DNA of 64,000 nucleotides from positions 4,883 to 68,882 of the forward strand of contig JASEJC010000001.1 in the NCBI GenBank assembly GCA_030016755.1, written 5' to 3'. Position numbers and translations under genes: made by a program. The DNA comes from Candidatus Hodarchaeaceae archaeon. GTDB taxonomy: Archaea; Hadarchaeota; Hadarchaeia; Hadarchaeales; Hadarchaeaceae. Positions within the stretch are counted from its first letter, which is position 1. Every line of letters starts with the position of its first letter. The notes beneath the pieces are model-generated. The model worked only from the letters and a program-made list of their open reading frames with translations. It did no database searches and was not told where the DNA came from. Below, in pieces: positions 8,094 to 62,475 of this stretch.

Positions 8094-8498
8094 TCAGACG
8101 ACCACCAGCTTGGCCTGCTTGACCCCACGGAGGGCGCCCAACCGATCGACGAGCTTGCGGATCTTCTCAGCTGGACCCTTGACGATTAACGTCTCTAAGC
8201 AGTTTTTGGTGTCCACGTGTAAATGCTGGACTGCGCCTATGATACTCAAACTCGCGTGTTGGATATCCATGAGCGCATCAGTCAGTCCTCGAACATCGTG
8301 CTCATACATCACGAGGATGGCGCCAAGTTGTTCTCCCTTTAACTCGCTGCGCCACTTGTAACTCGCCAAGAAATCCCGAAGCGCGTCCCTCACCGCTTCT
8401 GAGCGGCTCGCGTAGCCCTGAGCTTTGAGCATGCGATCGAGCTCATCTAGCAAATCTTGGGGCAACGTCAAGCTCACCCGCGTTATCCTTTGCGACAT
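8094..8498 (-). CDS. nikR: Nickel-responsive regulator NikR (ribbon-helix-helix plus C-terminal metal-binding domain)
   Basis: RVSLTLPQDLLDELD...GYASRSEAVRDALR forms the RHH. The C-terminal domain contains HVHLD-like VQHLHVD. The start was set at MSQRITRVS (8498). Confidence 0.85.
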   Translation of the reverse strand: MSQRITRVSLTLPQDLLDELDRMLKAQGYASRSEAVRDALRDFLASYKWRSELKGEQLGAILVMYEHDVRGLTDALMDIQHASLSIIGAVQHLHVDTKNCLETLIVKGPAEKIRKLVDRLGALRGVKQAKLVVV

Positions 8499-8545
8499 GC
8501 TTCCCCATCCAAACTTACACACATTTCAGTATTTCAAGTTTCGTA

Positions 8546-8991: not shown

Positions 8992-9261
8992 ATGGAGGAA
9001 GTTGCACCTGAAGAGAAGAAGCTCGTGGGAAAGGTGACCCACTACTTCACTAAGATAGGGGTGGGAGTCATCGAGCTTTCCGACGAGCTGAAGGTTGGCG
9101 ACCGGATCTCGATCGAGGGCGCGACGACAAACATCCAGCAAACCGTGGAGTCGATGGAGATTGAGCACAAAGCCGTGCAGAGCGCGAGCGCAGGGCAGTC
9201 GATTGGGCTCAAGGTCGTCCAGCGTGTGCGCGAGGGCGATCTCGTCTACAAGCTGGGCTGA
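8992..9261 (+). CDS. Small translation-elongation-factor-like protein (EF-Tu domain 2-like beta-barrel)
   Basis: 89 aa. GKVTHYFTKIGVGVIELSDELKVGDRISIEG...GQSIGLKV matches the small stand-alone EF-domain-2 family as I recall it. Confidence 0.7.
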   Translation: MEEVAPEEKKLVGKVTHYFTKIGVGVIELSDELKVGDRISIEGATTNIQQTVESMEIEHKAVQSASAGQSIGLKVVQRVREGDLVYKLG

Positions 9262-10091
9262 CGCCTTTTACCCTCTTTGAAAAGCTTTTCGAAGGTCCGA
9301 TCGGCGAGTTCCCTGAATGCCCTTGCCGCCCGAGATTTAGGGGAGTAGCGCACGACTGGGATGCCCGCCGTCAGACTTTCTCTAACTTTATCGTCGTCGG
9401 GTACCGTGGCGATAATCGGCCACCCAAGAGTCTTCCTGATCTCTGACAGGGGAACCTCGTAACGCTTGCCCATGATTTTGTTGACAACGACGCCTGTGAT
9501 CGGGATGCGGTACCGCTGGGCCGCACGGAAGGTCCGAAGGGTGCTAGCGATAGTCGGGATTTCAGGATTCGTCACAACCAGCATCTCGTCGCAAGCCTTT
9601 ATCGCAGCTACCGCCTCTGCACCAAGACCGGGCGCGGAGTCGATTATGATCAGCTTGTACTTTGACCTTGTCGGCTCTATAGCTCCTTTCAGATCAACTA
9701 GTGGGATACCCCCCTCATAAGCTACTGAACCAGGAACGGCGTGTAACTTGCCACCGACAACATTTGTAGCTCTTTCTATAGGTACTGCGCCCGCTAGGAC
9801 ATCGTGAATCGTCACCTTGGGGTCTATGATGCCGAGGTGTAGGCCGAGATTTGGTGCTGAGAGGTTTGCCTCAATTACTATTACCCCATTTCCAAGTCGC
9901 TCAGCCAAAAGCATGCCCAAGTTCGCTGCCGTTGTAGTCTTCCCCACGCCACCTTTACATGAAAATACGCCAACCACGCGCGCGCGCCGTGGTTTTATCT
10001 CGATCCTGCGCCCGCCACGCTTAAATCCGCGAAGCAGTTCTTTCATGCTAGAAAAGCGTTTTTTACGGGCGCTCGACAATCTACCAACCAT
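9246..10091 (-). CDS. MinD/ParA/Mrp-family P-loop ATPase
   Basis: Deviant Walker A motif SCKGGVGKTTTAANLG. 281 aa with a basic N-terminal extension. Confidence 0.85.
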   Translation of the reverse strand: MVGRLSSARKKRFSSMKELLRGFKRGGRRIEIKPRRARVVGVFSCKGGVGKTTTAANLGMLLAERLGNGVIVIEANLSAPNLGLHLGIIDPKVTIHDVLAGAVPIERATNVVGGKLHAVPGSVAYEGGIPLVDLKGAIEPTRSKYKLIIIDSAPGLGAEAVAAIKACDEMLVVTNPEIPTIASTLRTFRAAQRYRIPITGVVVNKIMGKRYEVPLSEIRKTLGWPIIATVPDDDKVRESLTAGIPVVRYSPKSRAARAFRELADRTFEKLFKEGKRRQPSL

Positions 10092-10109: not shown

Positions 10110-10436
10110 TCATAAAAGTGTTGTAAACTCACCTGTCCTCGCTTGCTTAGCAGCTTCCTTACCCTTGTCCGTCAAAGTGTAAGCGGTCAACAACCCGCGC
10201 CTTGTCTCCCCGATCAAGCCTCGTTTCTTGAGAGATCCTAACAACACATCCATCCTGCTTGGGTTCACCGAGACCCCTTGACGAGCGAAAATCTCTTGGA
10301 TGATTTCGTGCTTGCTCATCGACGTGTGCCCATATAGAAAGCCTAAGACCAGAGTTTCTAGATTATCTGCCACAAATTTTGTGCTCTTCGCGACGTCTAT
10401 CTTGCGCACATTTTCAGTCGGGAATGGGGCCTTCAT
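10110..10436 (-). CDS. PadR-like winged-helix DNA-binding protein
   Basis: 108 aa. LVLGFLYGH..MSKHEIIQEI...LLGSLKKRGLI...YTLTDKGKE follows the wHTH pattern. Its ATG overlaps the stop of the upstream gene (ATGA). Confidence 0.6.
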   Translation of the reverse strand: MKAPFPTENVRKIDVAKSTKFVADNLETLVLGFLYGHTSMSKHEIIQEIFARQGVSVNPSRMDVLLGSLKKRGLIGETRRGLLTAYTLTDKGKEAAKQARTGEFTTLL

Positions 10437-11320
10437 TTTTCCCGCCCCATCTTGCGCTTTAGCCGCTTCAACAGCCTTACATCTTCCTTTGCGCCTTTTT
10501 GCACCTTTGGCTTGCTCGGCCGCTCAAGCGTCTCAATCGCGGGTTCTTCCGCGGGCCTGAGTTTTGTCGCATGTTTCAAACGTCTGATGGTTGGGGCCAT
10601 CTCGGGTCCCCTAACCTCCGCGCCTCTGGGTTTTCTCCCCATTACCCTGCGCTTGAGCCAAGCCAGCGAGACAAATGGTTTCATCGGGCGGGTTGAGAAC
10701 CAGTAAAATGCTGAAACCCCACCTGCAACAGCGACGATCGACAGCACCGCATACAGGCCCAGCGGCGCGGGAACCCCAGCCGACTGCCCCGCCACTGCAA
10801 ATACTGAAAACCCGGGACTAGTGGCCTCGTAGTAGAGGTAGAAATCGCTAGTTTGGATCAAAGTTGTTGGTAGCTCCTGCCACGCACCGTTCAACCTCAG
10901 CAGCGTGATAGAATTTTCGTCAATGCGATTTTGCTCGGCCCAGTCTCTTAGCACCCTGAACTGAATTACCGCGTTCTCGATGTCTTCGCTCGCTTCGAGA
11001 GAGAAGTAGGTCTGCACAAGTAAGGAAGGCTCTGCGACTCCTGCTGGTTTCTCAAGCTGCTCAACTACGATATCCACTTTCTTGACGTTTTCCCCAAGCC
11101 AAAGCGTTATCCGGGTGATTGTTGGATGCCCGACCAGCACGATGCTGTGCGTGTTGGCTAGGTTGTCTTCCGCAGCGCCTTGGATTGTCATAAGATTTCC
11201 TAGTGAAGCGAGAGAGATGGGGGCAAAAGCAATCGCCGCCAGAAGGCCCACAATAAGACACCCTAAAACTTGCCCCGCCCAGTAACCTCTACCCCGTGCC
11301 TTTGCCAGGGGTCCGCTCAA
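10433..11320 (-). CDS. Membrane protein with a PGF-pre-PGF-like extracellular domain and a Lys/Arg-rich cytoplasmic tail
   Basis: N-terminal TM, then a domain ending ...YYEATSPGFSVFAVAG, a second TM, and a tail rich in K/R. The domain name is from recollection of TIGR04213-type proteins. Confidence 0.6.
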   Translation of the reverse strand: MSGPLAKARGRGYWAGQVLGCLIVGLLAAIAFAPISLASLGNLMTIQGAAEDNLANTHSIVLVGHPTITRITLWLGENVKKVDIVVEQLEKPAGVAEPSLLVQTYFSLEASEDIENAVIQFRVLRDWAEQNRIDENSITLLRLNGAWQELPTTLIQTSDFYLYYEATSPGFSVFAVAGQSAGVPAPLGLYAVLSIVAVAGGVSAFYWFSTRPMKPFVSLAWLKRRVMGRKPRGAEVRGPEMAPTIRRLKHATKLRPAEEPAIETLERPSKPKVQKGAKEDVRLLKRLKRKMGREK

Positions 11321-11433: not shown

Positions 11434-12072
11434 ATGAAGAAAGGCGAACGGGTTCTGCGCGAGATCCTATACCGCTTTCACGAGCGCAATGAGCGGTTCA
11501 TGAGCCAAAAGGCGCTGGCGGAGGCTTGCGGACTTTCCCTTGGCACGGTCAACCCAATCGTGCGCAGGCTAGAACAGCTTGGCGCCATCGAGAAGAAACC
11601 CCTAGGATTTAGGGTCAGCGATGTGACGCGCATCCTGCTGTACTGGGCCAGCAAGAGGAACTTGGCTAAGGATATAGTCTATAGCACCAGCACTTCCCTC
11701 TCAGCAGCAAATATTGAGAAGGACCTGCCCCAAGGCTCGGTTATGACTGCCTATTCTGGTTTCAATGCTAGATTTGGTGAAGTGCCGATAGACTATCAAG
11801 AAGTTTATGTGTATGCAGACCCGGCTGAGCTGAAGCGAAGGTTCCCCCGCGCGCGAGGCCGTTTGAATAACCTCATCGTGCTGAAGCCAGATGAACACCT
11901 CATTCGACTCAGCGAGGGAGGTATTGCCCCCCTAGCCCAGATTTACGTTGACCTGTGGCAACTTGGTGATCCGGCAAAAAAACTCGTCGATGAACTCGGC
12001 GCGCGGATGCGGGCAGGGGAGATAGGTGCGCTTCAGGGGATTATTAAAAGGACCCGGGAGCGGCCCGGATAA
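11434..12072 (+). CDS. Winged-helix transcriptional regulator with an uncharacterised C-terminal domain
   Basis: MSQKALAEACGLSLGTVNPIVRRLEQLGAIEKK forms the wHTH. The start was set at ATG 11434 (MKKGERV). Confidence 0.6.
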   Translation: MKKGERVLREILYRFHERNERFMSQKALAEACGLSLGTVNPIVRRLEQLGAIEKKPLGFRVSDVTRILLYWASKRNLAKDIVYSTSTSLSAANIEKDLPQGSVMTAYSGFNARFGEVPIDYQEVYVYADPAELKRRFPRARGRLNNLIVLKPDEHLIRLSEGGIAPLAQIYVDLWQLGDPAKKLVDELGARMRAGEIGALQGIIKRTRERPG

Positions 12073-12940
12073 TCGACTTCTCAAGCTTTAGGAGCAGAGC
12101 CTTTGCGCCCTCCAAGTTTGCCGTTTTACCCCTACACCGCGAACACGCTGCTGCTGCACGCTCGATATCTTTGCGGAAGCTCTCGTATGGTTTTGCCGCC
12201 TCAATTATCCTGTTCACAAGTGCCCGGATTTGCTTTGCCGGCACTTCAAATGTGCCACAGAAGGGGCACCCTGCCAACTCCTCAACGGCGCTGACCCTCA
12301 TTAAGGCCCGGTCTGGTCCCGATGGGTGCCGCTTCTTGACCAGGCGAACCGCATCCTCTGGGCAAACCTCCTCACAGCTGGCGCAACTGATGCACTTATC
12401 GTACATGAATTTCACCGTTCGCTTGTTGCCCTCGTCCGCCAGCTCTATCGCGGATGTTGGGCATGCCTTTTCACATGCGCCGCAGCCCGTACACTTCTCT
12501 GAATCAAGCTCGGGCTGCCCCCTGAAACCCTTGGGGGCCAGCCAGCGTCTGTACTTGACACCCATGGTCCGAGCTACCCCCTCCCCTATCGCCTGGGGAC
12601 TGGGTGGGCAACCAAGGACATACAAATTAACCGGGATGAACTTGTCCGTTGGTTCAAGAGCACTGTACGATTTCTGGAAAATCCCGCTTGATAGAGCACA
12701 CGTACCAACTGCAATCACGGTTTTGGGTTCCCTGAGCTTGTTGTAAACTTCCTTGAGGGGTCCCGCCATTTTTGCGCTGACGACTCCAACAACGAGGAGC
12801 ATATTCGCTTTCTCGGGCTCGTCCACTATTCTCGCTTTGAGATTTCCAATACCGAACCTCTCAGCCAGTGCACACACTACCTCGATGTCGCAGCCATTGC
12901 AGGAGCCAACGTTCAGGCGGTAAACTCCTATCTCGCTCAC
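12044..12940 (-). CDS. [NiFe]-hydrogenase small subunit (NuoB/MbhJ/EchC-like) fused to a 2x[4Fe-4S] ferredoxin domain and a CxxC-x37-CxxC tail
   Basis: GSCNGCDIEV, GTCALSSG and GCPPSP are the NuoB-type cluster ligands. CTGCGACEKACP and CISCASCEEVCP follow, then CPFC...CSRC. GTG start at 12940. Confidence 0.85.
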   Translation of the reverse strand: MSEIGVYRLNVGSCNGCDIEVVCALAERFGIGNLKARIVDEPEKANMLLVVGVVSAKMAGPLKEVYNKLREPKTVIAVGTCALSSGIFQKSYSALEPTDKFIPVNLYVLGCPPSPQAIGEGVARTMGVKYRRWLAPKGFRGQPELDSEKCTGCGACEKACPTSAIELADEGNKRTVKFMYDKCISCASCEEVCPEDAVRLVKKRHPSGPDRALMRVSAVEELAGCPFCGTFEVPAKQIRALVNRIIEAAKPYESFRKDIERAAAACSRCRGKTANLEGAKALLLKLEKSIIRAAPGSF

Positions 12941-12951
12941 CTCAACCCGTC

Positions 12952-14277
12952 CTAAATTCCCGTACTAAACTGTACAGGCAATTTTTCTGGCTCCATCCCC
13001 AGCTTCGCTTGGGCTACAAGCCCATCCACTGGGGACTGCATCTGCCAGCAGTCGGCGGGGACGTGCCTCGCCCCATCCTTAGCTATGTTCCAGCTCGCCA
13101 CCAAGTGACGGCTGGCCTCGAACCCGCAAGCTTTGCACCTGTAGGTGTGCCCATTCGGCCTGTTGTACCGGCCACATATCGGGCAGTCCTTCGACTTGTG
13201 GTAGTTGCTGACCTCCACCGTTGGCAGTCCTTGTCGCGCCACCTTGTACTCGGCATAGAACTGGAACTTTCGGAAAGGCCACTGGTTGAGCCTCCTGCGC
13301 ATGTCCTTCCGCAGGGCCCTGCCGTTCTTCGACTTGCGCTTCGAGCGCATGAAACCACGAATTCCCTTGATACCCCCGAAGGTGACCGCGACTCGCTCTC
13401 GCTCGGCAATCTTGGCGATCTGTTTGCTGACAACGTGTAGGATCTGGTTAGTGCGGTTGCGCTCCCTTCGCCAGTACTTCGCCTTGAGCCTGCGCTTCTG
13501 CACCGGTCGCTGCGGTGGCGTATCCAGCTTTCGCTGAATCGATTTGCGCTTGAGCTGTGACGAGTGCCTTATCGCGGGGAGCTTTGAGACATCGAGACTG
13601 ATGTGTTTTGGCTGTTCGTTTGGCTTCAGGATGGTCAAATCAACGCTCTGCTCGTTGATGTCTATGCCGCAGATGCCCTCCGTTGGCCTCGGTTCCACCT
13701 CGCACTTGAACGGCACAAAAACATTGGCTCGATCTTTGAATAGCGAGATCGTGATTTCCCCGACTTTCTTTTTACCTTCCCGCCAGTCGCGGAGGTATCG
13801 GAGTACGTGGTGCTCGGTCACCACGAGCGGAAGCCAAAGGTACTCCCCGCGACGGATTCTGATTTGAATCACATTTCCGCAGAACCTGCAAACGCCAGTT
13901 TGGTTTCTATCGCCCCAGAGTTCTAGGCGCATTGTCCGCGCTTTGTAGGCGGGTGGCTTCTCCGGGTTCGCCTGTCCTTGGCGACAGAGCTTCCGCCACG
14001 AGCGGAGCGTCTGCGTAGCCATCTGCCCGGCCGAGTGGAACCAGTGCGTCGCTAGATCAAAGCGCGACTTCCACTCCTCGTAGGCGACGTGATGTAGCGA
14101 GGCGCGGGAAGTAACCTTATGTTCGAGGCACTTCTGGATGTAGAAGTTAACCGACTCCGCGAACTTGCCGAGGAGATCGCCCAGCAGCTCGCGCTTTCGC
14201 CCAGTCAGCGGAGGTGTAATGAATCTAGCGGAGCTGACGGACTGCACATCTTCTACCTCCGATGCGTTTTCTACCAT
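12952..14277 (-). CDS. TnpB-like (IS200/IS605 OrfB family) protein with apparently degenerate RuvC motifs II and III
   Basis: GICGIDINE (RuvC-I), zinc ribbon CPICG...CKACG and C-terminal WNIA are present. The expected IVxEDL reads VAVTFGGI, and the expected RDxNAAxNI reads RHLVASWNI. The track ORF extends to GTG 14412. ATG 14277 (MVENAS) lies about 45 nt downstream of a TATA-like box. Confidence 0.85.
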   Translation of the reverse strand: MVENASEVEDVQSVSSARFITPPLTGRKRELLGDLLGKFAESVNFYIQKCLEHKVTSRASLHHVAYEEWKSRFDLATHWFHSAGQMATQTLRSWRKLCRQGQANPEKPPAYKARTMRLELWGDRNQTGVCRFCGNVIQIRIRRGEYLWLPLVVTEHHVLRYLRDWREGKKKVGEITISLFKDRANVFVPFKCEVEPRPTEGICGIDINEQSVDLTILKPNEQPKHISLDVSKLPAIRHSSQLKRKSIQRKLDTPPQRPVQKRRLKAKYWRRERNRTNQILHVVSKQIAKIAERERVAVTFGGIKGIRGFMRSKRKSKNGRALRKDMRRRLNQWPFRKFQFYAEYKVARQGLPTVEVSNYHKSKDCPICGRYNRPNGHTYRCKACGFEASRHLVASWNIAKDGARHVPADCWQMQSPVDGLVAQAKLGMEPEKLPVQFSTGI

Positions 14278-14320
14278 TTTCTGCCCAAGCCACTTTGGGG
14301 GAGGGGGGTCTCCGAAAGTA

Positions 14321-14338
14321 ATATATAAACTATTTAAA
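14321..14338 (-). promoter_or_regulatory. TATA-like box (minus strand CCTTTAAATAGTTTATATAT) upstream of the TnpB-like ORF
   Basis: AT-rich box in an otherwise GC-rich spacer, about 45 nt upstream of ATG 14277. Confidence 0.4.
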
Positions 14339-14449
14339 GGGCTCCCAGGCACGACCTGATTGTCTTCTAGAGCCCATTTTTGGTGCCTTTTTTCGCCATT
14401 TTTCAGGGGCACCGAAAGTATTCCCCGAATGATACGGTCTGGTACGGTT

Positions 14450-15595
14450 TTATGTAGCAGCTACAACACCCCTCAGCTCATCTAAAGTGACCCGCCTGCT
14501 CCTTCCCGTCCGCTCGTCCACGACAGTGACGCGATTCGTACAGGAGATGCAACGGTCCAGGCTCTCCAAAATCACTGGGAAGTCGGCTAGTTTTTGTTCG
14601 CGGAGCATCTCCACGACGGCTCGATCGTTCATGTAAGTAGGTGGCCTGAGCTTAACCCGTTCTGGATAATTTGTTCCGTTCGACCTCACATAATAAATAA
14701 GCTCGCCTCGCGGTGCCTCCACTCTGCTGAAGTCCTCCCCAACCAGCGGCTCCCTAATATCCACGCTAATTTCACCTTTAGGCATGCGCTCGATTAGCTG
14801 TCGGATAATTTTCACGCTTTCCAAAGTCTCCCTCGCCCGAACCAAAGCCCTTGAAAAAACATCGCCCTCCTCTTCCGTGGGGATTTCGAAATCCACTTCC
14901 CCATAGGCGGCATACGGGTCGTCTTTCCGTATATCGCTTTCAACACCTGATGCTCTGAGCACGGGGCCCACTACACCGTATGCCCTTGCTTTACCCCTAG
15001 GTAGGGGACCGAGCCCCGAAAGCGTGGGCGCTGCATTCCTAAGCTCTCTTGAAATGTCATCAGTGAGGGTTTCGAGGTCACCCATCAGAGACTTCACTGC
15101 TGCCAACATCCTCTTGGTCACGTCGCGCCTGACCCCACCTATCGAATTTATCGAAAAGTGCACCCGGTTGCCGCAGATGGACTCGATTAAATCCATCAAG
15201 CTCTCACGAGCGTTGATGATTTTAATGAACTGACCTTCGTTGTGTAGTGTATGAAAAAACAACCCAAACCACATGTAATGACTGTGCAAACGATCCATCT
15301 CAAAAACTAGTGACCTGATATTTCTCGCCCGCGCCGGAACTTCCGCGCCGAAAATCTTTTCCACCGCTTGGCAATATGCCGTGGAGTGGGCTTGGGAGCA
15401 CAACCCGCATACGCGCTCAGCCAGGAAAACATTTTGAACAAATGACTTCGATTCCATCAGGCGCTCAATCCCACGATGCGTATAGCCTTGCCTAATTTCC
15501 ACATCAGTAATTTTGCCATCGCGCACAGTAATCTCGTATAACTCTGGCTCCAGCAACAAGGGGTGATATGGCCCTACCTTTACCACATCGAACAT
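14450..15595 (-). CDS. [NiFe]-hydrogenase large subunit, group-4-like (EchE/MbhL/NuoD fold)
   Basis: N-terminal Ni-binding pair RVCGLCSQAH and C-terminal pair DRCISCTNR are both present. VGPYHPLLLEP and GYTHRGIE are family motifs. Confidence 0.9.
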   Translation of the reverse strand: MFDVVKVGPYHPLLLEPELYEITVRDGKITDVEIRQGYTHRGIERLMESKSFVQNVFLAERVCGLCSQAHSTAYCQAVEKIFGAEVPARARNIRSLVFEMDRLHSHYMWFGLFFHTLHNEGQFIKIINARESLMDLIESICGNRVHFSINSIGGVRRDVTKRMLAAVKSLMGDLETLTDDISRELRNAAPTLSGLGPLPRGKARAYGVVGPVLRASGVESDIRKDDPYAAYGEVDFEIPTEEEGDVFSRALVRARETLESVKIIRQLIERMPKGEISVDIREPLVGEDFSRVEAPRGELIYYVRSNGTNYPERVKLRPPTYMNDRAVVEMLREQKLADFPVILESLDRCISCTNRVTVVDERTGRSRRVTLDELRGVVAAT

Positions 15596-16462
15596 TTACC
15601 CAATCCTCGCAGCCAGTTGGGAGACTGGGCTTCGATGAAACTCTAACGACAGCTCCTTTGCAGGTACACTAAAGGCGAGGGCTAGAAGCTCAGCTAAGTG
15701 TAGACATGGGACCGAAAACTTTTCGCCGTATCTTCTGAGGTCAAGCTGCCCTGATTCAAACTGAACGTTGCATGCGGGACACACCACCGTGACGCCATCG
15801 ACCCCCACGTGTTGATAGCACTTCAGCTTAGGGAGGAGGTTGTGCTTCAGCGAAAACTCTTTATCTACTTGGGATGTCGGAAAACCGCAACACATCTGAT
15901 CTAAATCACAGCGGATGACCTCAGCCCCCGTCGCGCGCACTAGCTCCTCGAACTGCCTTGGCTTCCTCCAGATGTCTCCACCGTCTTCCTCCCTGAAGAG
16001 GTGACAACCGTAGTGTACCGCTAGCTTCAGGTTAAGCGGTTTCTTGACCCGCTCCTTTATCGCTTCGACTCCGACATCCTCATGGAGAACCTCTACAATG
16101 TGCCTGACCTTTATTGTCCCCCCGTACTTCCTCCCCACCTTGGTCAAGAGCTCATTGATCTCGCCGGCAGTTTCCTCCTGTTTCATGGCTTCGTTGGCCT
16201 CCCACAGTGTCTCAAAACAGCCGTTGCACAGCACCACAACATCGAGGCCCTGTTTCTCCGCTATGCTCAAGTTCCTAGCCGATAGGGAGAGCGCGACCTT
16301 CCTATCCATCAGGCGTGCCAAGATTGGGTCCGGGCAACATGTGTAGCCCGACATGTCCGCGATCTCGAGCCCAAGCGAACTGAAAACTTTGCGTGTGGCC
16401 AGTTCAGCGCTGGGGAGCCGCTGGGGTATCAAACAACCCAAGAAAAGAGCATATTTTTTCAC
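15596..16462 (-). CDS. HdrB-like protein with two CCG domains (heterodisulfide-reductase subunit B family)
   Basis: YALFLGC...YTCCPDP and ...QMCCGFP...CPAC are the CCG-type Cys motifs. The probable GTG start at 16462 overlaps the NuoC-like stop (GTGA). Confidence 0.8.
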   Translation of the reverse strand: MKKYALFLGCLIPQRLPSAELATRKVFSSLGLEIADMSGYTCCPDPILARLMDRKVALSLSARNLSIAEKQGLDVVVLCNGCFETLWEANEAMKQEETAGEINELLTKVGRKYGGTIKVRHIVEVLHEDVGVEAIKERVKKPLNLKLAVHYGCHLFREEDGGDIWRKPRQFEELVRATGAEVIRCDLDQMCCGFPTSQVDKEFSLKHNLLPKLKCYQHVGVDGVTVVCPACNVQFESGQLDLRRYGEKFSVPCLHLAELLALAFSVPAKELSLEFHRSPVSQLAARIG

Positions 16463-17130
16463 TTTTTCGTCCCCCTCAATTTCTTCCGCTCCCAATCGTA
16501 GCCGACCCGCTCGCTGAAACTCGTCTGCTTGATTAGCTCGTGAACCTCTTTCAGCTGGGGCTCGCTCGAGTAACTTGCGGGGGGTTGGGGAGGTAGCCCC
16601 GCCTCCACGCGCCTGCGCTCAACCAAGGGAGTTATGGGCGCAGTGGCACCGACGGTTGTAATAGCCTCAGCTACGGGGGTGATTTCATCTGGCACTGGGG
16701 GCTTGAAGGGCTTGCCCAGCGGGAAACTGCCCTCCGGCCACTCGTCTTGTAACACCAAATGCCTCGGCTCGGGATGGTCCCTGAATTTCGCCCCGCAAAG
16801 CTCGGCTGCCTCCTTCTCCGCCCATTCCGCCGCCGGAGTCAGGCCGACTATGCTATCGATTTCAGGGTTCTCCTTCGCCAACCTTGTTTTCAGCACCACG
16901 ACCCTACCCGTTAAATCGAAGTGGTAAAGCAACTCGATATCCAACCCCACATCGATGGCTGCGATGATTATGAACCGTGCCCCCCCACCAAGCAGGCTCT
17001 CGGTGGCCTTTCTTATCGCCCCAGGTGTTATCTCCGCCCAAACCTTGCGTTCTCGAGGCGTGGACGCGTTCAGAAGTTCGTCCCCGAGGTTTTCCTTCAG
17101 GAGTTTAACTATTGCGTTTTCCTCCACCAT
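16459..17130 (-). CDS. NuoC/MbhK/EchD-like 30-kDa hydrogenase subunit
   Basis: LLYHFDL...PAAEWAEKEAAELCGAKFRDHPEPRHL. The start was set at MVEENAIV (17130), after AAAGGAGGTG, overlapping the upstream stop (TAATG). Confidence 0.85.
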   Translation of the reverse strand: MVEENAIVKLLKENLGDELLNASTPRERKVWAEITPGAIRKATESLLGGGARFIIIAAIDVGLDIELLYHFDLTGRVVVLKTRLAKENPEIDSIVGLTPAAEWAEKEAAELCGAKFRDHPEPRHLVLQDEWPEGSFPLGKPFKPPVPDEITPVAEAITTVGATAPITPLVERRRVEAGLPPQPPASYSSEPQLKEVHELIKQTSFSERVGYDWERKKLRGTKK

Positions 17131-17705
17131 TACACCTCCTTTAGATATCGACTTCGCATGAACTCTGACGCTTCGGCGCGGGTGCCAACCCTGATCGCTT
17201 GAGGGGAGCAGTACTTGGCGCACTGAGGGTCGCCGTCGCAGAAGTTACACTTGGTTGCGACGCGGTGCTCCTCGTCGAACCATGCTGCGGCAAGGGGGCA
17301 GGCGTAGATGCAGGAGCGGCAACCGGTGCACTTCATCGGGTTTATTGCCACCCATCCCGTGCGCTCGTCCCTAGTAATTGCGTCCTCCGGGCAGGCGGCA
17401 ACGCACACCGGGTTCTCGCAGTGTAAACAGTTGTTCGCTTCACGCACAAACTTCTGATCGTCGATGAAAACATGAATATGGGATTTCTCCGGGTTGAGGG
17501 TGCCGAAGTTTCTGTGGGCGCACGCGATCTCACAATACCGGCAACCCGTGCACCGTTCCGCATCGTAGATAAGCACGAGCTGCTCCTCCTTAGACTTCTC
17601 CAAGAGGGTCGCCTCTTTTGCCGAAAGGGGGCTGATGCGCTTAAGGCTTTCGTTTCTTGCCACCCAAGCTGCGTTCGAAAATTTCCTCGCCCGGTTTCCA
17701 CCCAA
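17130..17705 (-). CDS. Poly-ferredoxin of the HycB/DmsB type (four Cys clusters)
   Basis: CTGCRYCEIAC, CLHCENPVCVAACP, CTGCRSCIYACP and CNFCDGDPQCAKYC. The start is uncertain because the ORF overlaps the 3' end of the upstream gene by about 65 nt. Confidence 0.8.
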   Translation of the reverse strand: MGGNRARKFSNAAWVARNESLKRISPLSAKEATLLEKSKEEQLVLIYDAERCTGCRYCEIACAHRNFGTLNPEKSHIHVFIDDQKFVREANNCLHCENPVCVAACPEDAITRDERTGWVAINPMKCTGCRSCIYACPLAAAWFDEEHRVATKCNFCDGDPQCAKYCSPQAIRVGTRAEASEFMRSRYLKEV

Positions 17706-18902: not shown

Positions 18903-19343
18903 CTAGAGATTGACGATGGTTTCTTTGAGCGTTTCCATCGCCAGAGTAGTCCTAACGCTCTTTACCGAGTCAAAGGACTGGATGTGATCATCGACAAACT
19001 TGTTCAGGCTGTCCATGTCCCGAGCACGGATCTTCATCATCAAGCTGTGGCCCCCCGTGGTACGGTGGAGCTCGCAGACCTCATGGCGGCGGGCGAGGGA
19101 GCGAGTCAGCTCCCGCATGGCCTGAGAGTCCACATCCACGCTGACAAATGCCACCACCCCGTACCCATACTTCTTGGGGTCTATGACCGCAGAATAACCC
19201 TTGATCAGGCCAGACCGCTCAAGCTGCTTGATCCGCCGCCTTACCCCGGAGGTGCTCAGACCGACCTCACGTCCCATCCTGCGCAGCGGAACATGTGCAT
19301 CGTCGCTCAGCATCTTCAAAAGTTTCAGGTCAACGCTGTCCAA
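18903..19343 (-). CDS. Lrp/AsnC-family transcriptional regulator
   Basis: DLKLLKMLSDDAHVPLRRMGREVGLSTSGVRRRIKQLERSGLIKGY plus a C-terminal RAM-like domain. Confidence 0.85.
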   Translation of the reverse strand: MDSVDLKLLKMLSDDAHVPLRRMGREVGLSTSGVRRRIKQLERSGLIKGYSAVIDPKKYGYGVVAFVSVDVDSQAMRELTRSLARRHEVCELHRTTGGHSLMMKIRARDMDSLNKFVDDHIQSFDSVKSVRTTLAMETLKETIVNL

Positions 19344-30100: not shown

Positions 30101-33100
30101 TTATTTATTCTTGCCCTTGGCGTTGCCTCGCCCCTGATTACCGCCACCTTGGTCTAGGTTTCCACCACGTTGCCCTGGCCCTGCCCGCCACCCTGATTCT
30201 CCTTGACCTTGGCCCGGAGATTGACCGCCCTGCTCGGGAGGCGTTTGGGGTGGGCCTTGTCCCTGCCCTTGGTTTCCACCCTGCCCCGGCGTCCCGCCCG
30301 ATTGGCCTGGCGGAACTTCTGGCCTGTTCCCGTGACCTTGGCCCTGTCCCTCACTAGGTTTGATAACCCGGATGGTGTCGCTTCCTCTGAACGGTGCGGA
30401 GCCCCACTTGCCGATTACCGTCAGCTCAACATTGTCACCAACGCTCACCAGCCCTTGCACGGCCGAGCGATCGAACTTAACCATCAGGTCTGGCACGCCG
30501 TCGCCGTCGTGGTCACCGATCTCGGTTGGCCAAGGCTCAGCGGATAGGATTCCCTCGAGGAAGATGTCGCCCTCGAGAGCCACGGTGCTCACGTCGATTT
30601 TCGCCACATCAAGGCCGCCCGGCAGCTCGATGTAGCAGGTTATCCAGCGGCCTTGGCTACGGAGGTTTAGAGTTTCAGGGTCGATGTCGATCATAGCGGG
30701 TATCAAGGTGGCACACCTGGCGTCGGCTTCCGGTGGCGGCCCCTCGACGTTTCCCGCCACATCGCAGGCTATAGAGTAGAACTCGTAGAAGCCGTGGCCT
30801 GCTGGTATGTCGAACGACCACTCGTAGGGCTCCTCGTTGTCGGCCCCGAACGATGTCCAATCGCCCCAAGTTGAATTGTCGAGCGAATGGCGGTAGTAAA
30901 GCTCGACGCTCGCGACGCCGCTCAGTCCATCCGATGCTGTGGCGGTAATTGCAAAAGGCGTCAAGGTCTGCCAGTAGGGCTCGATCGGATCGACCGAGGA
31001 GACCGGTGGAGTAGTGTCAACCCCGATCCTCTCATCGGGCTCCTCGGGTGCCTTCTCGACATTTCCGGCAACGTCTGCGGCGATCGAGTAGAGTTCGTAG
31101 TAACCATTGCCTTGGGACGGGTCGAACTGCCAAGCGTACGGGGACTGGTCATCAGCGGCGTAAAGCGTCCAGCCCGACCAGTTGAGGTTATCGGGCGAGT
31201 AACGGTAGTATAATCTGACATCCCTCATTCCGCTTGGTACGGCACCGTTCGGCGGGACTGGATCGTTTGCCGCGGCAGTCACTTCAATTGGAAGCATCGA
31301 AGCGTTGTGCCAGTGGGGTTCGATTGAGTTAAGGCTGGAAATGGGGGGCAGCGTGTCGACGCCCGCCTGTGCATCGGCACTCTCCGGGGCCGCCTCACGG
31401 TTTCCGGCTCGGTCCGCCGCAACCGAGTAGAACTCATAGAAGCCATCGCCAGCGGGGGCATCGAATGTCCAAGAGTAAGGTTCGGAATTGTCTATGTCGT
31501 AAAGCGCCCAGTCGCTCCATGTTGAGTTATCAGCGGAGTATCGGTACCACAGTTCAATGTTTTCGGCTCCACTCAGCGCGTCGGAAACCGTGGCGGTTAC
31601 CTGGAACGGGACCGTCCCCGCGTTCTGCCACAATGGGCTGACTGGGTCAACGGAAGATAATGGTGGCATAGTGTCAACGCCGCACATCGCGCCCGTAACC
31701 ACGGCCTTCACGGTTGGAGTGTACTTCCAGCCGCCATCCGTGTAGATGCTCTCGCCGTTCCACACCGCGTCCCATATGGTTCCAATCCCAGAGGCAACGG
31801 ACATCAATCCTCCTGAGGGTAACTCATACCTCCAGATCTTGCCATCTTGCCACACAAGGTACAGATATCCATCACCGGGTATCATTATCGAAACTATCGC
31901 CACGGGATACGGGTATCCGGGCGCTTGCACGGGTGTGACGCCGGAGATCGTCTTCAATCTGACCCAGCTATCGGAAGAAATCGTATACCTCCACAGTTCC
32001 AATGAATAATATGTCCCCTCAAGGAGCGCATAAATGTGATCCCGTCCATCCCACGTCAAGTCCGCTGCCAGCATGCTAGACGGGAACGATAGGGTATCCC
32101 ACCTGTTGCCCGAGATGGAGTACCGCAAGAAGATCCCACCGTTGTCCAAGGTGTAAATGTAATCGTCGCCAGTCCATACCAGTGCCCCCCTGTGAATCCC
32201 GATGGGAGTTGATGCCATGCTCTCCCAGCGGTTTGCTGAGATGGAATATCGCCAGAAGTCATGCTTGGGGTCGAAGTAGTAGCCTCTAAGGGCGTAGAGA
32301 TGCCCATCTGCCCAAATCAAGCTGTTGAAGCTCGCCCCTTCAGCCGGCATAGCGGTCAGGTGCGTCCACGTATTGTTGGAGATAGAGTAACTCCAGAGTT
32401 CGCTCCATGTGCGCATGTATACCTTGTCGCCCCCATCCCAAGCCAGCCCCCTCCAGCCCTCGGTGGATGCCGGAGCCGAGATGGAAGAGAACGTTCCATC
32501 AACATGAACTACTGAGACAGCCCCCCTCATCCCCTCCGCGTTGCCAGCGCGATCTGTTGCGACGCTTGTGAACTCGTAGTACCCGTCCCCCGCAGGAGAA
32601 TCGAACTTCCAAGTCCAAGGCTCGTTGTCATCGATGCCGAGCGACCGCCACTCGGACCAGCTTGAGTTATCTGGCGAGTAGCGGTAGAAAAGCTCAACGT
32701 TACCGACCCCTGAGAGGATATCCGACGCTTTTGCGGTCACCTCAAGCGGGAGGGTCTCATCATTTTGCCAATAAGGCGTTATTTGGTCGAGGTAAGATTC
32801 TGGAGGCGTGGTGTCCACACCAGCTCTAGCAGTCGCCTTCGGCCATGTTATGTGTGTGTCCACATTCACATCGCCGAATAGGTCAAACCATACTGTGTAA
32901 ATGTAGTCGGATGTATCAGATCCAGCAAACTCGCTTCTGATGTTCCCATCCACAGAGATGACCTCAATGTTACCAATTCGAACAGGTTCGGGTAACCATA
33001 TCCGACCTCTGAAACCTTCTAGCTCCTCCACCCATTCATCAACAGGCTCAGGAATCCAGTGCCGGCCCCATATTTCTTTTATTTCCATCCTTACCCTGAT

Positions 33101-36100
33101 ATCGACGTCCATCATGGTTACATCTATCCACGTGGGCCACCAACCATTCTCCCAATATCCGTAAAAGTTCTCGCCTTCGATCTCGATCCAAATCCCATAA
33201 GTTCCATTCGGGTTCCCGGGATTTCCTCCGTACTCATACTCTGGGGCCTCGACCTCATATGGTCCGCGCTCAAAAGAGGCCCCTGCCTCACCCCTAAGGC
33301 TTCCTATGAGCGTTCTCGATTCGACCACGGGCTGCTCGAGGTTCCCCGCCCTGTCAACGGCGAGGGTGCCGAACTCGTAGTAACCGTCCTCCTCGGGGGC
33401 GTCGAATGAGCACTCCCATGGCCACTCGTTATCAACACCGTAAAGCCTCCAGTCGTTCCAGCCCATGTTGTCATTTGAGTACCTGTAGAACAGCATGACC
33501 TCTTTAACGCCGCTCCGGTCGTCCGTCGCGGTTGCCGTGATAGTGAAAGGCAGCTCACTTTGCCAGTAGGGTGAGATCGTATCTACAGATGAGGTGGGCG
33601 GGACGGTATCGATGTAGACGTATGTGGCCCCCGACCAATCGCTCCAAGCCCCCGCCCCGTTCTGTGCGCGGACCTTGATGTAATAAATGCCATCAGCTAA
33701 AGTTGGATGATAGCTAGTATCCGTTGTGTAAAACGTGTCTTCCGACCAAGAGCGGTATACCTCATATTGATTCACCCCAGTATCAGGATCGCTTGCTACC
33801 CAGTACCAATGCGGTGAATTGTGGTTCGACCATTCTCTGCCGCAGTGATCCTCACCGACTATCGGGGTAGTTGGAGGCGTTGTATCCACGACTAAGGTGT
33901 AAGTGCCGTCACCGCTAATTTTACGAACCTCGATATAGTAATAACCCGACATCTCCGCAGTATAGATTATCTCCTCGCTCATGTGGCCTAGATGTGTGGA
34001 ACTCGCGATTAAGTTCTGTTCAGGATCGTATAGATGAAGGTCGAAATCACATTCGTGGTTTTCTTTTATGCCAATCGTTTTGCCCTTTTCTGCCCCAATT
34101 TGATAAAAGTCCTTTATATCCACCCCTCTTAAGCTGCCTGTGTATCTCCCCGAAAGTATCCTCCTTGGGCAATCAAGATTATCGCCTGCATCGCCTGCGA
34201 ATCCCGCATCAAATTGTTGTTCGATCCTAATCATCTCCGTGTCTAAATAACTTACCCCGGCGTATTTCGCTCTTGCTCTCAGGAGATAAGTGCCGCTTGG
34301 AGCATTTGCCGGCGCAAATATTGACTCCCTATAATACGCAGAACTGCCTGATCCGAGGGTAGTCCTATCAATAAGTCCGCCACTGATGGTCTGGCCATTA
34401 CTGTCCATGAACTCCAAGTATACATCAACTCGCTCTAAAGTGCGTGGTAAGTTATTACGCACATCGAAGAGAACGTAAAACTCATCGCCTGCCATAACTT
34501 CTGAAGGGGCCTCTAATAAATTAACGGTCAGCTCATTAATGACCCTCATCGGCATTTGTGGATCACCTAGCAAAACTGTTGTCAGTATCAGACCCCGATT
34601 ATTTGGATCACCGACCCCTTTCTCTTGTAAGTACTGCCGCTTTGCGGCATCTAAACACACCGCCGGTTGGTACCGATGTTCTGTAAAAAATTTCTGCCAA
34701 AAAAGAACATCAAGTTTTCCGCTTAAATCCTCATTAAGACCAGGTTCAAAAAGAACTCCGTGCACGTATGGTGCCTCTCTAGAGTTACCTACATAAGCGA
34801 TTGCAGTTTTTCCTTCGACAAAGGGACTGTATAGAGAATATTCACCTATCGTTGGTTTATCGTAATCGAAACTCGCAGAATAACATGCTACTACATACAT
34901 CAAAAAACCTTCTGAATTTGTAAGTTGAGCTACCGTGCATTCTCGGTAAAATGGAAAAAAGTCCTTTTTTCCTTTCTTTCCTTTTGCCGATAACTCAATT
35001 TCGTTTCCATGTGAAAACGAGTTAATGATTCCGGGTTCAAGTTGATTTATGGCATTCACTACGTTTATCTCTGTTAAATTCGCATCTTCGTCATAAAGTG
35101 TATGAGTGTCAACCTGCCCCCTTGCGAAATTAGCTATGGGGGCTTTAACTTCTGAACCATAATGGTCCCTAGTCCAACTTTGGTATATCCAGCCGCCGAG
35201 TAAAAGGAAATCCTCAACCGCCGGGCGATTAGCACCATACTCTGTGATCTTTTTAATAGATGGGGTTGGTACCCTGCTGACGTGGACCTCTGGTATCCAA
35301 TCTACTTCATCAAAAATTATCGATCCTAAAAAGGAAGCAAATTCACCGAAATTGCTATTGGTATTGTAATCGTCCCAAGTTCCATCCAAACAAGCATAAT
35401 AAGAATCTGCTGGCGCAAACGCTCGCCAAACCTCTCCGCGTTTCTTTGCTTGTTCTTCGAATATCCCATACAAGCGTACGTATCTTGTAGGAAGTTCCCA
35501 GTAATTGTCAAGCGCTGGTGGCTGCGGTGTCGCATCATAGGACGTTGGCCTATCGGCTGGATCCACGTCACCATTCAACAACACCCACTTGACATTTTTA
35601 TTAAGATAATACCATTTAATGCAATTTCTTATTTTTTCCGGTATATCTCTACCTTGGTAAGTATTTGTGATGCCGAGTGTGACATGGTCAAAAATCACGT
35701 TCCCGTCTTCGCTTTGATCTACCGTGACAACGTATGTTTCTAACCCCCAATCCTCTTTTTGCCGTACAAAGGCGTTCAAGTCCGCATCAACTAACTTTGG
35801 TCGCGTCACGATGAGGTAACCATCATCATTTGAGTTCTCTTGGGAGGCTAAATCATCATGTTTGATTTCAGACTCTAGACTATTATATGGAGGGTCTACT
35901 TCTACATACACCTTAATTTGTTCATAAAATACCATCTCCCCTACTGAAGGACGATATTGAATCGGGTAAACCCAGATGCCAATTACTAGCGACCCTCCTT
36001 CCCCACCCACCACCATAGCTTCCCCCAAACGTCCGGGATAGAATAAACCTGAATTATAAACGTTCCCATCCAGAAATAAAACCGTTGATTGTGATGTTTG

Positions 36101-38553: not shown

Positions 38554-38892
38554 CTACTCGCCCTCCTTTTTCACCATTATTTCGGCCCCGACCGTTCGCC
38601 TGATCACCTCGCGCAGCTCATCGACCTTCGGTGTGTACCCAGTTTTGTCGGGAATTCGGAGCACGAGGGGGAGCAGCCGCTTCGCCCGCATCGCCTGGCG
38701 GAACTCGAACCCGAGCTCCTCCGCGACGCGATGGGTCAATAGGATGAGCCCGATCTCATCGCTTGCTAAAAATTCTTTCAGCTTGGCGAGCGTCTCGTCC
38801 TTCGTCGCGTGAACGTGTGCGTAGGTGGCGCCAGCCAAGGCCATGCCCGTGGTGGTGTCCAGATCCCCGATGACGGCAACTCTATAACTCAA
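38554..38892 (-). CDS. atpF: A-type ATP synthase subunit F
   Basis: 112 aa. VAVIGDLDTTTGMALAG pattern, position between C and D. Confidence 0.85.
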   Translation of the reverse strand: MSYRVAVIGDLDTTTGMALAGATYAHVHATKDETLAKLKEFLASDEIGLILLTHRVAEELGFEFRQAMRAKRLLPLVLRIPDKTGYTPKVDELREVIRRTVGAEIMVKKEGE

Positions 38893-40015
38893 TCTTTGCC
38901 ACCCTCGTGATTTTTTCCTTTATTTTCTGCGGCTCCGCGCCGTCCGCCTTGAGCCTGATTATCGCGCGCAGGTTTCGCATCTCGTTCTCCTTCAGGTTGA
39001 TGTACGAAACCACGGGCGCTATGCTGAAGAACTGGGTGAACTCAAGCCACCTACATAATTTAAGGTGCACTTCATCGAGAGCCCGCTCGGCCGCGGAGAT
39101 CCCTTGCTCCTCTATCTGCGGCATGGCTTCTGCCAAAATTTTGCCTGGGGTGGTGATGTGGATCATGTGTATTGCCGAGCGGACGTCCTCGGCCGTGACC
39201 ATCGCCTTCAACATCACATCCGTCAGCTCGTGCGAAGGCTTCACAAGATACTTGTCGATTTCATCTGGTGGGGTGCCCTCATGTTTGAGCCGCAAAATCA
39301 GCTTGATGTTCACCGAGTCGATCTCGTAGCCGATAATCGCCTTTAGTATTGACCGCTGTGCCCTCTTTGCCAGCACGTCCTCCCACAGGGCCTTGTAATA
39401 GTGCTTGTCGAGAGCCAAAAGCAATGCAATCAAGCCGCGCTTCTCGTAATCCTCCAGTGCCGCCGATATCACGTCGAAGTACTCACTTCCCTTCAGGAAT
39501 TCCAGCAATCCTTTCAAATCCTCTGCTGACGTGAGCATCTCGAGCCTCTCGCGGGGCATCGTCGGTGAAGACAACAGCACTTGTAATCTTTGCTCCTTTG
39601 GAATCTTGTTGTGAATCATTGTGATGAGGGCCTTGAGGTTCCAGAGGTCCACCCGCTGGAGTATCCTCAAAACGGTTCCCTTGCGTTGCTCCGGCACCAT
39701 GGCGATGAGCTCGCGGTAGCGTGCGTTCAAATTCTCCCTCAGCGCTCGCTCCACCGCCACCATGTCGACTTCCTCGCCTTTCGCGACCTCGGCGAGCTGC
39801 GGTCGGTATTCAGTGTCTTCCAGAGCGGAGAATATGTTCACGATCCTCGGGGCGTCCGCAAGCTCCATCAGACGGGCCTCCGATAGCAGCCTCGCCTCCC
39901 ACGCGCTTATGGTCGCGTTGCAGAAGACGTACGGCATCGAGCGGCGGGCGCTGATGATCACTAGGGCAAACATGGCACCTATCAGGGCTAGGACAAAAAT
40001 TAGGACCTCTATCAT
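38882..40015 (-). CDS. atpC: A-type ATP synthase subunit C (d-like); possible 26-aa hydrophobic N-terminal extension
   Basis: YVFCNATISAWEARLLS is the usual subunit-C N-terminus and begins at aa 28. ATG 40015 overlaps the atpE stop (ATGA). The alternative start is ATG 39937. Confidence 0.85.
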   Translation of the reverse strand: MIEVLIFVLALIGAMFALVIISARRSMPYVFCNATISAWEARLLSEARLMELADAPRIVNIFSALEDTEYRPQLAEVAKGEEVDMVAVERALRENLNARYRELIAMVPEQRKGTVLRILQRVDLWNLKALITMIHNKIPKEQRLQVLLSSPTMPRERLEMLTSAEDLKGLLEFLKGSEYFDVISAALEDYEKRGLIALLLALDKHYYKALWEDVLAKRAQRSILKAIIGYEIDSVNIKLILRLKHEGTPPDEIDKYLVKPSHELTDVMLKAMVTAEDVRSAIHMIHITTPGKILAEAMPQIEEQGISAAERALDEVHLKLCRWLEFTQFFSIAPVVSYINLKENEMRNLRAIIRLKADGAEPQKIKEKITRVAKIEL

Positions 40016-40641: not shown

Positions 40642-40654
40642 GACATGCCCCCCC

Positions 40655-43166: not shown

Positions 43167-43170
43167 CGGG

Positions 43171-62457: not shown

Positions 62458-62475
62458 AATGAGGCGTACATAAGT

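Follow-up and report, generated by a model that had tools for sequence, protein, structure and literature searches.

A putative cytoplasmic, HdrB-linked group 4 [NiFe]-hydrogenase module in a Hadarchaeon and related genomes

Hydrogenases of group 4 are regarded as membrane-bound ion pumps that are either ancestors or cousins of complex I, and several of them are linked to HdrB. These HdrB-linked forms—Drh, Ehd, Ehe, and Ehg, described between 2015 and 2022—are known from genomes and have all been treated as membrane-bound (PMC9723716, PMC6046458); for Ehg, expression has been reported in a cultured strain of Methanonezhaarchaeia (PMC12700198). Ehd, Ehd-like, Ehe, and Ehg enzymes occur in Methanomethylicia, Culexarchaeia, Nezhaarchaeia, and some Bathyarchaeia (Kohtz et al. 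2022, PMC9723716; PMC12700198), while Qi et al. 2021 reported hdrB2 inside ‘fpo-like’ operons, always together with fpoH and fpoL and thus of the membrane type. In HydDB, subgroup 4g is a loose class of unknown function that includes one sequence from Bathyarchaeota BA1 (PMC5037454). Here, we describe a locus from Candidatus Hodarchaeaceae archaeon (Hadarchaeota; GCA_030016755.1), found in a 64,000-nucleotide (nt) stretch of contig JASEJC010000001.1 that we call the window, and in whose positions coordinates are given unless another contig or locus is named. We consider it probable that this locus, at 12044-17705 on the minus strand, encodes a cytoplasmic, five-subunit, non-pumping [NiFe]-hydrogenase:disulfide oxidoreductase, a membrane-free relative of the HdrB-linked group 4 hydrogenases.

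The initial annotation of the locus held that HdrB normally partners with group 3c Mvh, a statement made outdated by the description of Drh, Ehd, Ehe, and Ehg. Because HdrB-linked group 4 enzymes are already known, though uncharacterised, the novelty of the locus is smaller than that annotation assumed. What is new here, judging by the sequences, is a distinct, widespread, membrane-less form of these hydrogenases. In the literature searched, we came across neither the five-gene membrane-less HdrB form nor the fusion of NuoC to an HdrC-like tail that accompanies it, and a literature search on soluble, cytosolic, or cytoplasmic group 4 hydrogenases returned the Sulfurospirillum case only (see below).

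Architecture of the locus beside described systems

The locus comprises six minus-strand open reading frames (ORFs) with identities assigned by Pfam, in the order HycB-like polyferredoxin, NuoC-like subunit, HdrB homologue, group 4 [NiFe] large subunit, a TnpB element, and a small subunit in which NuoB is fused to HycF. The polyferredoxin (157 residues; 17130-17603; Fer4_11) lies in an open frame of 17130-17705 and probably starts at the TTG at 17603, and the NuoC-like subunit (223 residues; 16459-17130, within an ORF of 16459-17223; Complex1_30kDa, PF00329) starts at the ATG at 17130 and ends in an HdrC-like domain of about 80 residues. Next come the HdrB homologue (288 residues; 15596-16462, within an ORF of 15596-16495; two CCG domains, PF02754, and two CCG motifs), starting at the GTG at 16462, and the large subunit (381 residues; 14450-15595), which starts at 15595 and matches Complex1_49kDa (PF00346) and the N-terminal NiFeSe_Hases segment (PF00374). 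These starts were taken from homologue alignments, and with them the first four genes overlap or abut. The small subunit (298 residues; 12044-12940; Oxidored_q6, PF01058, with Fer4) joins a NuoB/HycG-type domain to a HycF/NuoI-type 2x[4Fe-4S] domain. An eIF-2B-family gene lies upstream and a convergent winged-helix regulator downstream, with no membrane genes at the locus. The ORF list, Pfam, and hydrophobicity thus bear out the initial annotation, which had named the same six genes on the minus strand, the eIF-2B-family gene, and the oppositely oriented regulator, and had noted the lack of membrane genes.

The Ehd-like clusters resemble this locus most closely: in both, the HycB-like polyferredoxin gene comes first, the HdrB gene lies between the NuoC and large-subunit genes, and NuoC carries an HdrC-like tail; the large subunits form sister clades, and a disulfide-reducing role has been proposed for the Ehd-like enzymes. 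In Ehd-like operons, however, the polyferredoxin gene is followed by an antiporter-like gene and the large-subunit gene by one for NuoH. Both of these membrane genes are missing here, and the 2x[4Fe-4S] protein and the small subunit, encoded separately in the Ehd-like operons, are fused. The large subunits of the membrane-less form also make up a separate clade with a support of 100. The Drh (‘disulfide-reducing hydrogenase’, also termed ‘Ech-Hdr-like’) cluster of Methanocellales (Lyu & Lu 2015; PMC6046458), compared here through its published description, is likewise a group 4-type cluster with hdrB and without an antiporter, for which non-pumping, H2-driven disulfide reduction has been proposed, but it is described as membrane-associated and its genes run in the order drhB, hdrB, drhC, drhE, drhD, drhF, drhG, drhH. 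If the Drh letters follow the Ech scheme, drhB would by analogy encode an EchB/NuoH-type membrane subunit. No Methanocella locus was found among the best 80 of 116 HdrB relatives. The nearest cluster representatives are named Methanoregula, Bathyarchaeota, Desulfaltia, and Pelolinea.

Among enzymes with solved structures, the soluble arm of Escherichia coli formate hydrogenlyase (HycB-HycF-HycG-HycE; PDB 7Z0S) offers the nearest counterpart. HycE, together with MbhL, is the best solved match of the large subunit, which also has a HycE-like C-terminal extension (VTVVDERTGRS...); HycG and HycF match the small-subunit fusion; and the polyferredoxin is HycB-like, its nearest solved relatives being HycB and the Fe-S subunits of aldehyde:ferredoxin oxidoreductase (AOR)/WOR5. 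Formate hydrogenlyase differs in its membrane subunits HycC and HycD and in its partner FdhF, whereas the present locus pairs the hydrogenase with HdrB, encodes NuoC separately and with an HdrC tail, and has no membrane arm. The group 3c complex MvhAGD-HdrABC (PDB 5ODC, 8RVU) shares the HdrB type of catalytic subunit and the C-terminal domain of HdrC, and it reduces its disulfide with H2 in the cytoplasm; here, the hydrogenase belongs to group 4 rather than 3c, and other Fe-S subunits replace the ferredoxin domain of HdrC. With neither an HdrA or flavin nor an MvhD found in this genome, electron bifurcation is not expected. Finally, the EchEDFC cluster of Sulfurospirillum multivorans (PMC5357620) is a group 4 cluster that also lacks membrane-subunit genes, which was noted there as remarkable, but it has no HdrB subunit and was not expressed under the conditions tested.

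Cofactor sites, whose conservation was scored over 58-71 homologues per subunit, appear intact throughout. The large subunit carries the motifs RVCGLCSQAH and DRCISCTNR, with CGLC at residues 63-66 and CISC at 349-352, and the four Ni-Fe cysteines in them are invariant in 61 large-subunit homologues. Invariant, too, are the four cysteines of the proximal cluster and the eight of the HycF-type domain; all 16 cysteines of the small subunit, and with them its C-terminal CxxC...CxxC site, are at least 98% conserved, and the polyferredoxin has 16 cysteines, enough for four [4Fe-4S] clusters and all invariant in 69 homologues. NCBIfam assigns residues 15-123 of the small subunit to NuoB and residues 136-277 to the formate hydrogenlyase iron-sulfur subunit. 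An AlphaFold2 model of this protein (predicted local distance difference test score, 88.7) matched MbhJ, HycG, and HycF in Foldseek, which returned no match of its own for the C-terminal CxxC...CxxC region beyond HycF. The locus accordingly combines a NuoD-type large subunit with L1 and L2 CxxC motifs, a NuoB-type small subunit with a proximal [4Fe-4S] cluster, and NuoC and NuoI/HycF partners, as is characteristic of group 4. The initial annotation had called this a real hydrogenase from its two pairs of Ni-binding cysteines; the invariance of those pairs and of the Fe-S ligands across the family supports that call.

We propose that the Ni-Fe site in the NuoD-type large subunit would split H2 and that electrons would then travel to the proximal [4Fe-4S] cluster in the NuoB-type domain, on to the two clusters of the fused HycF-type domain, and from there to the four clusters of the polyferredoxin. 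The NuoC-like subunit, with a C-terminus that would correspond to the HdrB-embracing domain of HdrC, would keep HdrB attached to the hydrogenase. The order of this putative wire follows by analogy from the solved HycB-HycF-HycG-HycE arm, and the five proteins would presumably form a single complex working in this direction. Because there is no NuoH-type or antiporter-type subunit, no ions would be pumped. With potentials of about -414 mV for H+/H2 and about -140 mV for CoM-S-S-CoB, the disulfide of coenzymes M and B, H2-driven disulfide reduction is exergonic.

Distribution, phylogeny, and the question of a membrane arm

Species-representative genomes were scanned with an HdrB alignment, and the best 80 of 116 loci were kept and annotated by BLAST against the proteins of the window and those of an Ech-type operon encoded elsewhere in the same genome. 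About 70 of these 80 loci show the same five-gene order—polyferredoxin, NuoC, HdrB, large subunit, and small subunit fused to the Fer4 domain—without the insertion. A check for this order in related genomes had been suggested at the outset, and its recurrence in about 70 independent genomes places the module far beyond chance. Carriers include Hadarchaeota, many Bathyarchaeia, Thermoplasmata/Methanomassiliicoccales, and a few bacteria of the NC10/Methylomirabilota type, in which the small-subunit gene has moved to the front. Within the phylum Hadarchaeota the module is patchy, occurring in roughly 15 of 66 species genomes. Nine further loci are of a second type by their large subunits and belong to Methanomethylicia, Nezhaarchaeales, Baldrarchaeum, a Nitrososphaerota-labelled metagenome-assembled genome (MAG), and some Bathyarchaeia; most have the order polyferredoxin, antiporter, NuoC, HdrB, large subunit, NuoH, Fer4 protein, small subunit, HycI, which is the ‘Ehd/Ehd-like’ architecture of Kohtz et al. 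(PMC9723716).

In a maximum-likelihood tree of large subunits, the 62 membrane-less sequences form one clade (Shimodaira-Hasegawa-like approximate likelihood-ratio support 100; stem 0.48) apart from the Ehd-like clade and Ech. A wider FastTree phylogeny of 132 representatives places this clade, together with three basal representatives, next to one comprising the Ehd-like sequences and several NuoCD-fused forms, the two being sisters with a support of 90. In a whole-library search with the large subunit, one 50%-identity representative (464 bits, 53% identity to the query) stands for the entire family, and the next match reaches 47% and 345 bits. The large subunit, which is distinct from both HycE and the Ech-type enzyme of the same genome, falls inside none of the named clades sampled in these trees, from which Drh and Ehe sequences are absent. 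Within that sampling, the phylogenetic check named in the initial annotation yields a clade of its own and not a described subgroup.

Several relatives depart from the common pattern. Large subunits of the Thermoplasmata loci L087, L091, and L102 are 357-359 residues long and lack the C-terminal extension, and the second half of the NuoC tail differs in these loci; at L087:5663-8884, the module is followed by a 1073-residue NuoE/NuoF-GltD fusion, an NAD(P)H-binding module. The rearranged version with the small-subunit gene first was found in MAGs of NC10/Methylomirabilota and Chloroflexota (L080-L084), which suggests inter-domain transfer, while a module labelled Krumholzibacteriaceae, a bacterium (L038), nests among Bathyarchaeia sequences and possibly lies on a mis-binned contig. 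A Bathyarchaeia locus (L088:1739-5764) has a large subunit of the Ehd-like clade, yet no antiporter or NuoH gene interrupts its hydrogenase genes, and the Fe-S protein and small subunit are encoded separately; it may represent an independent loss of the membrane arm. At L103:288-7108, a different membrane-less group 4 cluster (NuoC, large subunit, small subunit, and 2x[4Fe-4S] protein) directly follows genes for a polyferredoxin, an AOR, and a Prismane-family (hybrid-cluster-type) protein, which suggests a wider set of soluble, partner-swapping group 4 modules.

None of the five subunits has a convincing hydrophobic segment or predicted transmembrane helix, while the Ech membrane subunits score clearly. 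The locus contains no NuoH/EchB/HycD-type or NuoL/Mrp-type subunit, and neither do the roughly 70 related loci except for a sub-branch of Thermoplasmata. Across 71 loci surveyed, no membrane protein is a conserved neighbour; hydrophobic ORFs lie near the module in 28 of them, and those scanned encode unrelated transporters (ZIP, CbiQ, a polysaccharide flippase, and a sulfur transporter), with L091 as the exception. The host genome, an 834-kb MAG in 62 contigs that is 87% complete, has a single [NiFe] large subunit besides that of the module. It is part of a complete Ech-type operon on contig C24 (locus L007, 217-6191), which encodes an antiporter-like subunit, a small hydrophobic protein, NuoB, NuoC, the large subunit, NuoH, and a 2x[4Fe-4S] protein, with a gene for the endopeptidase HycI on the opposite strand. 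A search of the rest of the genome for membrane partners and hyp genes, as the initial annotation advised, found HypD and HycI and located the only NuoH and antiporter genes in this operon. As the operon is complete and has a large and a small subunit of its own, catalytic partners already exist for the only membrane subunits of the genome.

It could be argued that the module is instead an exchangeable peripheral arm that docks on membrane subunits encoded elsewhere, such as an Ech arm or Mrp-type subunits, and is ion-coupled as has been proposed for Ehd, Ehe, and Ehg. We regard this as unlikely, although the closest relatives, the Ehd-like clade, do have antiporter and NuoH genes inside their operons and a NuoH is encoded somewhere in 36 of 50 carrier genomes. 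The other 14 have no NuoH homologue, and five of these also lack antiporter-like (PF00361) genes, including CP070773.1, a single-contig, 1.19-Mb Bathyarchaeota chromosome record that carries the module; membrane subunits are thus not consistently co-inherited from another locus, a possibility the initial annotation had raised against its own reading. Docking is further disfavoured by the fusion of the small subunit to its HycF-like domain, by the very short N-terminus of that protein, by the absence of a conserved membrane neighbour, and by the fact that the only NuoH and antiporter here sit in an operon with its own NuoB, NuoC, and NuoD.

Some observations nonetheless weigh against a cytoplasmic, non-pumping enzyme, the first two below being in keeping with docking. 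In the Thermoplasmata sub-branch, MbhD-, NuoK-, and antiporter-like genes directly follow the small-subunit gene (L091, 11469-13906; L102, 3612-4102), so that the clade is not membrane-free throughout. In one Hadarchaeales relative (L026/L008), the module is preceded on the same strand, at a distance of about 1.4 kb, by a complete Ech operon, making a loose association with a membrane arm possible in Hadarchaeota. Finally, the incompleteness of the genome bears on the absences found in it. For the Bathyarchaeia/Hadarchaeota core of the clade, a soluble enzyme is a well-supported prediction from sequence and genome content.

The HdrB subunit, its predicted docking arm, and candidate substrates

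The HdrB homologue is the sole CCG-domain protein in the genome and matches the solved HdrB chains 8RVU_b and 5ODC_B at E ~1e-71. All ten cysteines of its CCG motifs are invariant (C21, C53, C54, C90, and C93; C164, C202, C203, C239, and C242), and so are the residues that align to E87 and H154 of HdrB, which a recent Hdr structure paper assigned to the proton path (PMC13518236). Against TIGR03288, the NCBIfam equivalog for CoB-CoM heterodisulfide reductase subunit B, it scores 275.8 bits, below the cut-off of 345.15; the CCG protein is best described from its sequence as a member of the HdrB family and not as the methanogen equivalog.

The NuoC-like subunit would supply the means of attachment. 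It is about 80 residues longer than the Ech NuoC of the same genome (145 residues), in which the tail is missing. A single tail sequence matched solved HdrC chains at E 1e-5, and when 27 tails were combined into a profile, each of the five highest-ranking PDB matches was an HdrC (E 7.5e-13 to 1.4e-3, with noise from E 0.6). These matches extend over residues 106-182 of the 184 of HdrC, and the tail matches positions 85-143 of the 144 in the NCBIfam HdrC model TIGR03290. Both the membrane-less and the Ehd-like clusters have the HdrC-like tail and plain Ech does not; no stand-alone HdrC was found, HdrC being present only as the C-terminal domain fused to NuoC. In the HdrABC structure of Wagner et al. 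from 2017, the C-terminal part of HdrC reportedly extends over HdrB. If this geometry holds, the NuoC::HdrC-tail fusion would be a docking arm that fixes HdrB onto the hydrogenase. When a four-chain complex of the small subunit, polyferredoxin, NuoC, and, as partner, HdrB was predicted, a control with chain 1 replaced scored nearly as high, and the prediction counts neither for nor against such a complex. The fusion provides a sequence marker for HdrB-linked group 4 hydrogenases and would represent a docking mechanism that the module shares with the membrane-bound Ehd-type enzymes.

Genes around the module in other genomes bear on the likely substrate. An Lrp/AsnC-type regulator is a conserved neighbour in 14 loci, in both Hadarchaeota and Bathyarchaeia; in the window, the corresponding Lrp/AsnC-family gene (18903-19343, minus strand; Pfam) is a candidate regulator of the module. 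In Bathyarchaeia, a divergent HycI gene adjoins the module in 18 loci, and HypF, HypD, and HypC genes also flank it. Genes for GcvH-like (10 loci), NfnB/GltD-like, MvhD, and HdrA-like proteins lie nearby in 5-10 Bathyarchaeia loci each, and in a few loci of that class the module is flanked by TusA/DsrE/DsrH genes and a sulfur-transport gene; GcvH is also part of the Ehe cluster (Kohtz et al., PMC9723716). For Bathyarchaeia, such a neighbourhood hints at a disulfide that is protein-bound or located on a sulfur carrier. In this Hadarchaeon, where the module has no link to any of these genes, the candidate substrates are a lipoyl-protein disulfide, a low-molecular-weight disulfide, or a persulfide.

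Two specific partners were considered for this genome and rejected: a TusA/DsrE sulfur relay, as no TusA was found, and replacement by HdrB of the L-protein of the glycine cleavage system, as a Pyr_redox_dim protein is present. The halves of the glycine cleavage P-protein lie at 60746-63864 on the minus strand, and the only GcvH gene of the genome (C11:68765-69148) lies just past the end of the window in a canonical gcv context.

Group 4 enzymes are typically ferredoxin-coupled H2 evolvers (HydDB, PMC5037454), and the locus might accordingly encode mainly a ferredoxin-dependent, non-pumping H2 evolver in which the polyferredoxin is the ferredoxin port and the HdrB-like subunit acts on a non-disulfide substrate or has a regulatory or redox-sensing role. 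We find this improbable. CCG domains do occur in non-disulfide enzymes, and the subunit has weaker NCBIfam matches to SdhE, LdhH, GlpC, and GlcF, but these reach at most 133 bits, so that genuine HdrB is far closer; moreover, the ten cluster cysteines and the two aligned proton-path residues are invariant, the HdrC arm is kept, and the genes that accompany the module in Bathyarchaeia fit disulfide chemistry. On the other side of the balance, the proposed disulfide oxidoreductase is weakened by the sub-threshold equivalog score and by the lack of any obvious heterodisulfide metabolism found in this genome: searches of the 87%-complete assembly found no McrA, MvhD/FlpD, or TusA.

On balance, the suggestion in the initial annotation of a soluble NuoBCD-type hydrogenase wired to a CCG/HdrB reductase is supported by the conserved ligands, the match to solved HdrB, the conserved module, and the clade of its own. 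Whether the same holds for the entire clade we judge to be about an even question: its members would all be free cytoplasmic H2:disulfide oxidoreductases, in effect the complex-I-like Q-module minus its membrane arm, with HdrB held by an HdrC-derived arm grafted onto NuoC. If so, a peripheral module of the complex I family would work alone with another partner enzyme, providing a non-bifurcating, non-pumping route from H2 to the thiol/disulfide pool, be it a lipoyl-protein, a persulfide carrier, or a low-molecular-weight disulfide. Bathyarchaeia and Hadarchaeota are abundant in subsurface sediments and hot springs, and for some of the most abundant archaea of the subsurface the enzyme could be a main means of H2 uptake. 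Metabolic models of these groups usually label such genes ‘Nuo/Fpo-like’ or ‘membrane-bound hydrogenase’, a label that would then wrongly imply energy conservation. The disulfide substrate, once found, would fill a gap in the Hdr-type chemistry of non-methanogenic archaea.

The TnpB element and other features of the window

The TnpB-like gene that the initial annotation placed within the gene order is present, but it is not part of the module: it belongs to an insertion element, probably of the IS200/IS605 type, that occurs in none of the 80 related loci. This element spans about 1.5 kb (~12950-14470, minus strand), begins with the left-end hairpin GTAGCTGCTAC, and encodes TnpB only (ORF 12952-14412; Cas12f1-like_TNB, PF07282), with no TnpA found in it. 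Its junctions, mapped against the closest relatives, L018, L078, and L017, are precise and without a direct repeat. In those relatives, the large subunit ends in ...DELRRLK*, and the stop codon of its gene overlaps the start codon of the small-subunit gene within ATGA or GTGA. Here, the element was inserted after the DELR codons, so that the large-subunit tail becomes ...DELRGVVAAT*; the TnpB frame ends about 3 nt from the right end of the element, with its stop codon 11 nt ahead of the GTG start of the small subunit. The insertion is lineage-specific.

By separating the small-subunit gene from the large-subunit gene, the insertion has abolished their translational coupling, and expression of the small subunit may be reduced in this genome, a further point against a functional oxidoreductase here. 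More drastically, the module might be disabled or decaying after an insertion that split the operon and rewrote the end of the large subunit, a scenario that the patchy occurrence in the phylum would also fit. We think this unlikely. All six reading frames are intact, every ligand is present, and the small-subunit start codon has been kept. During maturation, HycE is processed after the arginine of CxxCxxR; by analogy, the C-terminal extension, in which the altered residues lie, would be removed from the large subunit as well. The left junction is common to two near-identical assemblies (GCA_030018345.1 and an SRA assembly), both of which end inside the junction, and in comparison with these the four genes upstream of the insertion have ratios of nonsynonymous to synonymous polymorphism (pN/pS) of 0.14-0.18. 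The insertion is therefore real and shared in the population, and the upstream genes are still under purifying selection.

The assembly contains one full copy of the element. A segment of about 140 nt close to the left end, where it overlaps the annotated TnpB start, recurs at 79-81% identity on three other contigs (C61:24963-25100, C49:148-287, and C33:10926-11027), and a 45-nt piece recurs at 89% identity at C1:3129-3173. These pieces may be remnants or miniature derivatives of the element.

Between 2 and 4 kb from the module, the window encodes the nickel-responsive regulator NikR (8094-8522) and an Mrp/MinD-type P-loop ATPase (9246-10091), both on the minus strand. ATPases of the latter family replace HypB in some archaea, and in L008 a homologue is flanked by HycI and HypA. 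Two unannotated ORFs (10110-10436 and 10433-11320) separate these genes from the module. Farther along, genes for subunits C, I, A, and B of an A-type ATP synthase (38882-46764) indicate that the organism can use an ion gradient, presumably one made by Ech. A minus-strand ORF of 2118 residues with Peptidase_C25 and Ig-like domains (30101-36457), of striking size for a 0.83-Mb genome, partly covers a stretch of low GC content (34-38 kb; 0.43-0.47 against about 0.55) and may encode a surface protease or adhesin or represent foreign DNA. The sole tRNA of the window (50810-50902, minus strand) is 90-93 nt long and was given no anticodon by ARAGORN; it may be an intron-containing archaeal tRNA.

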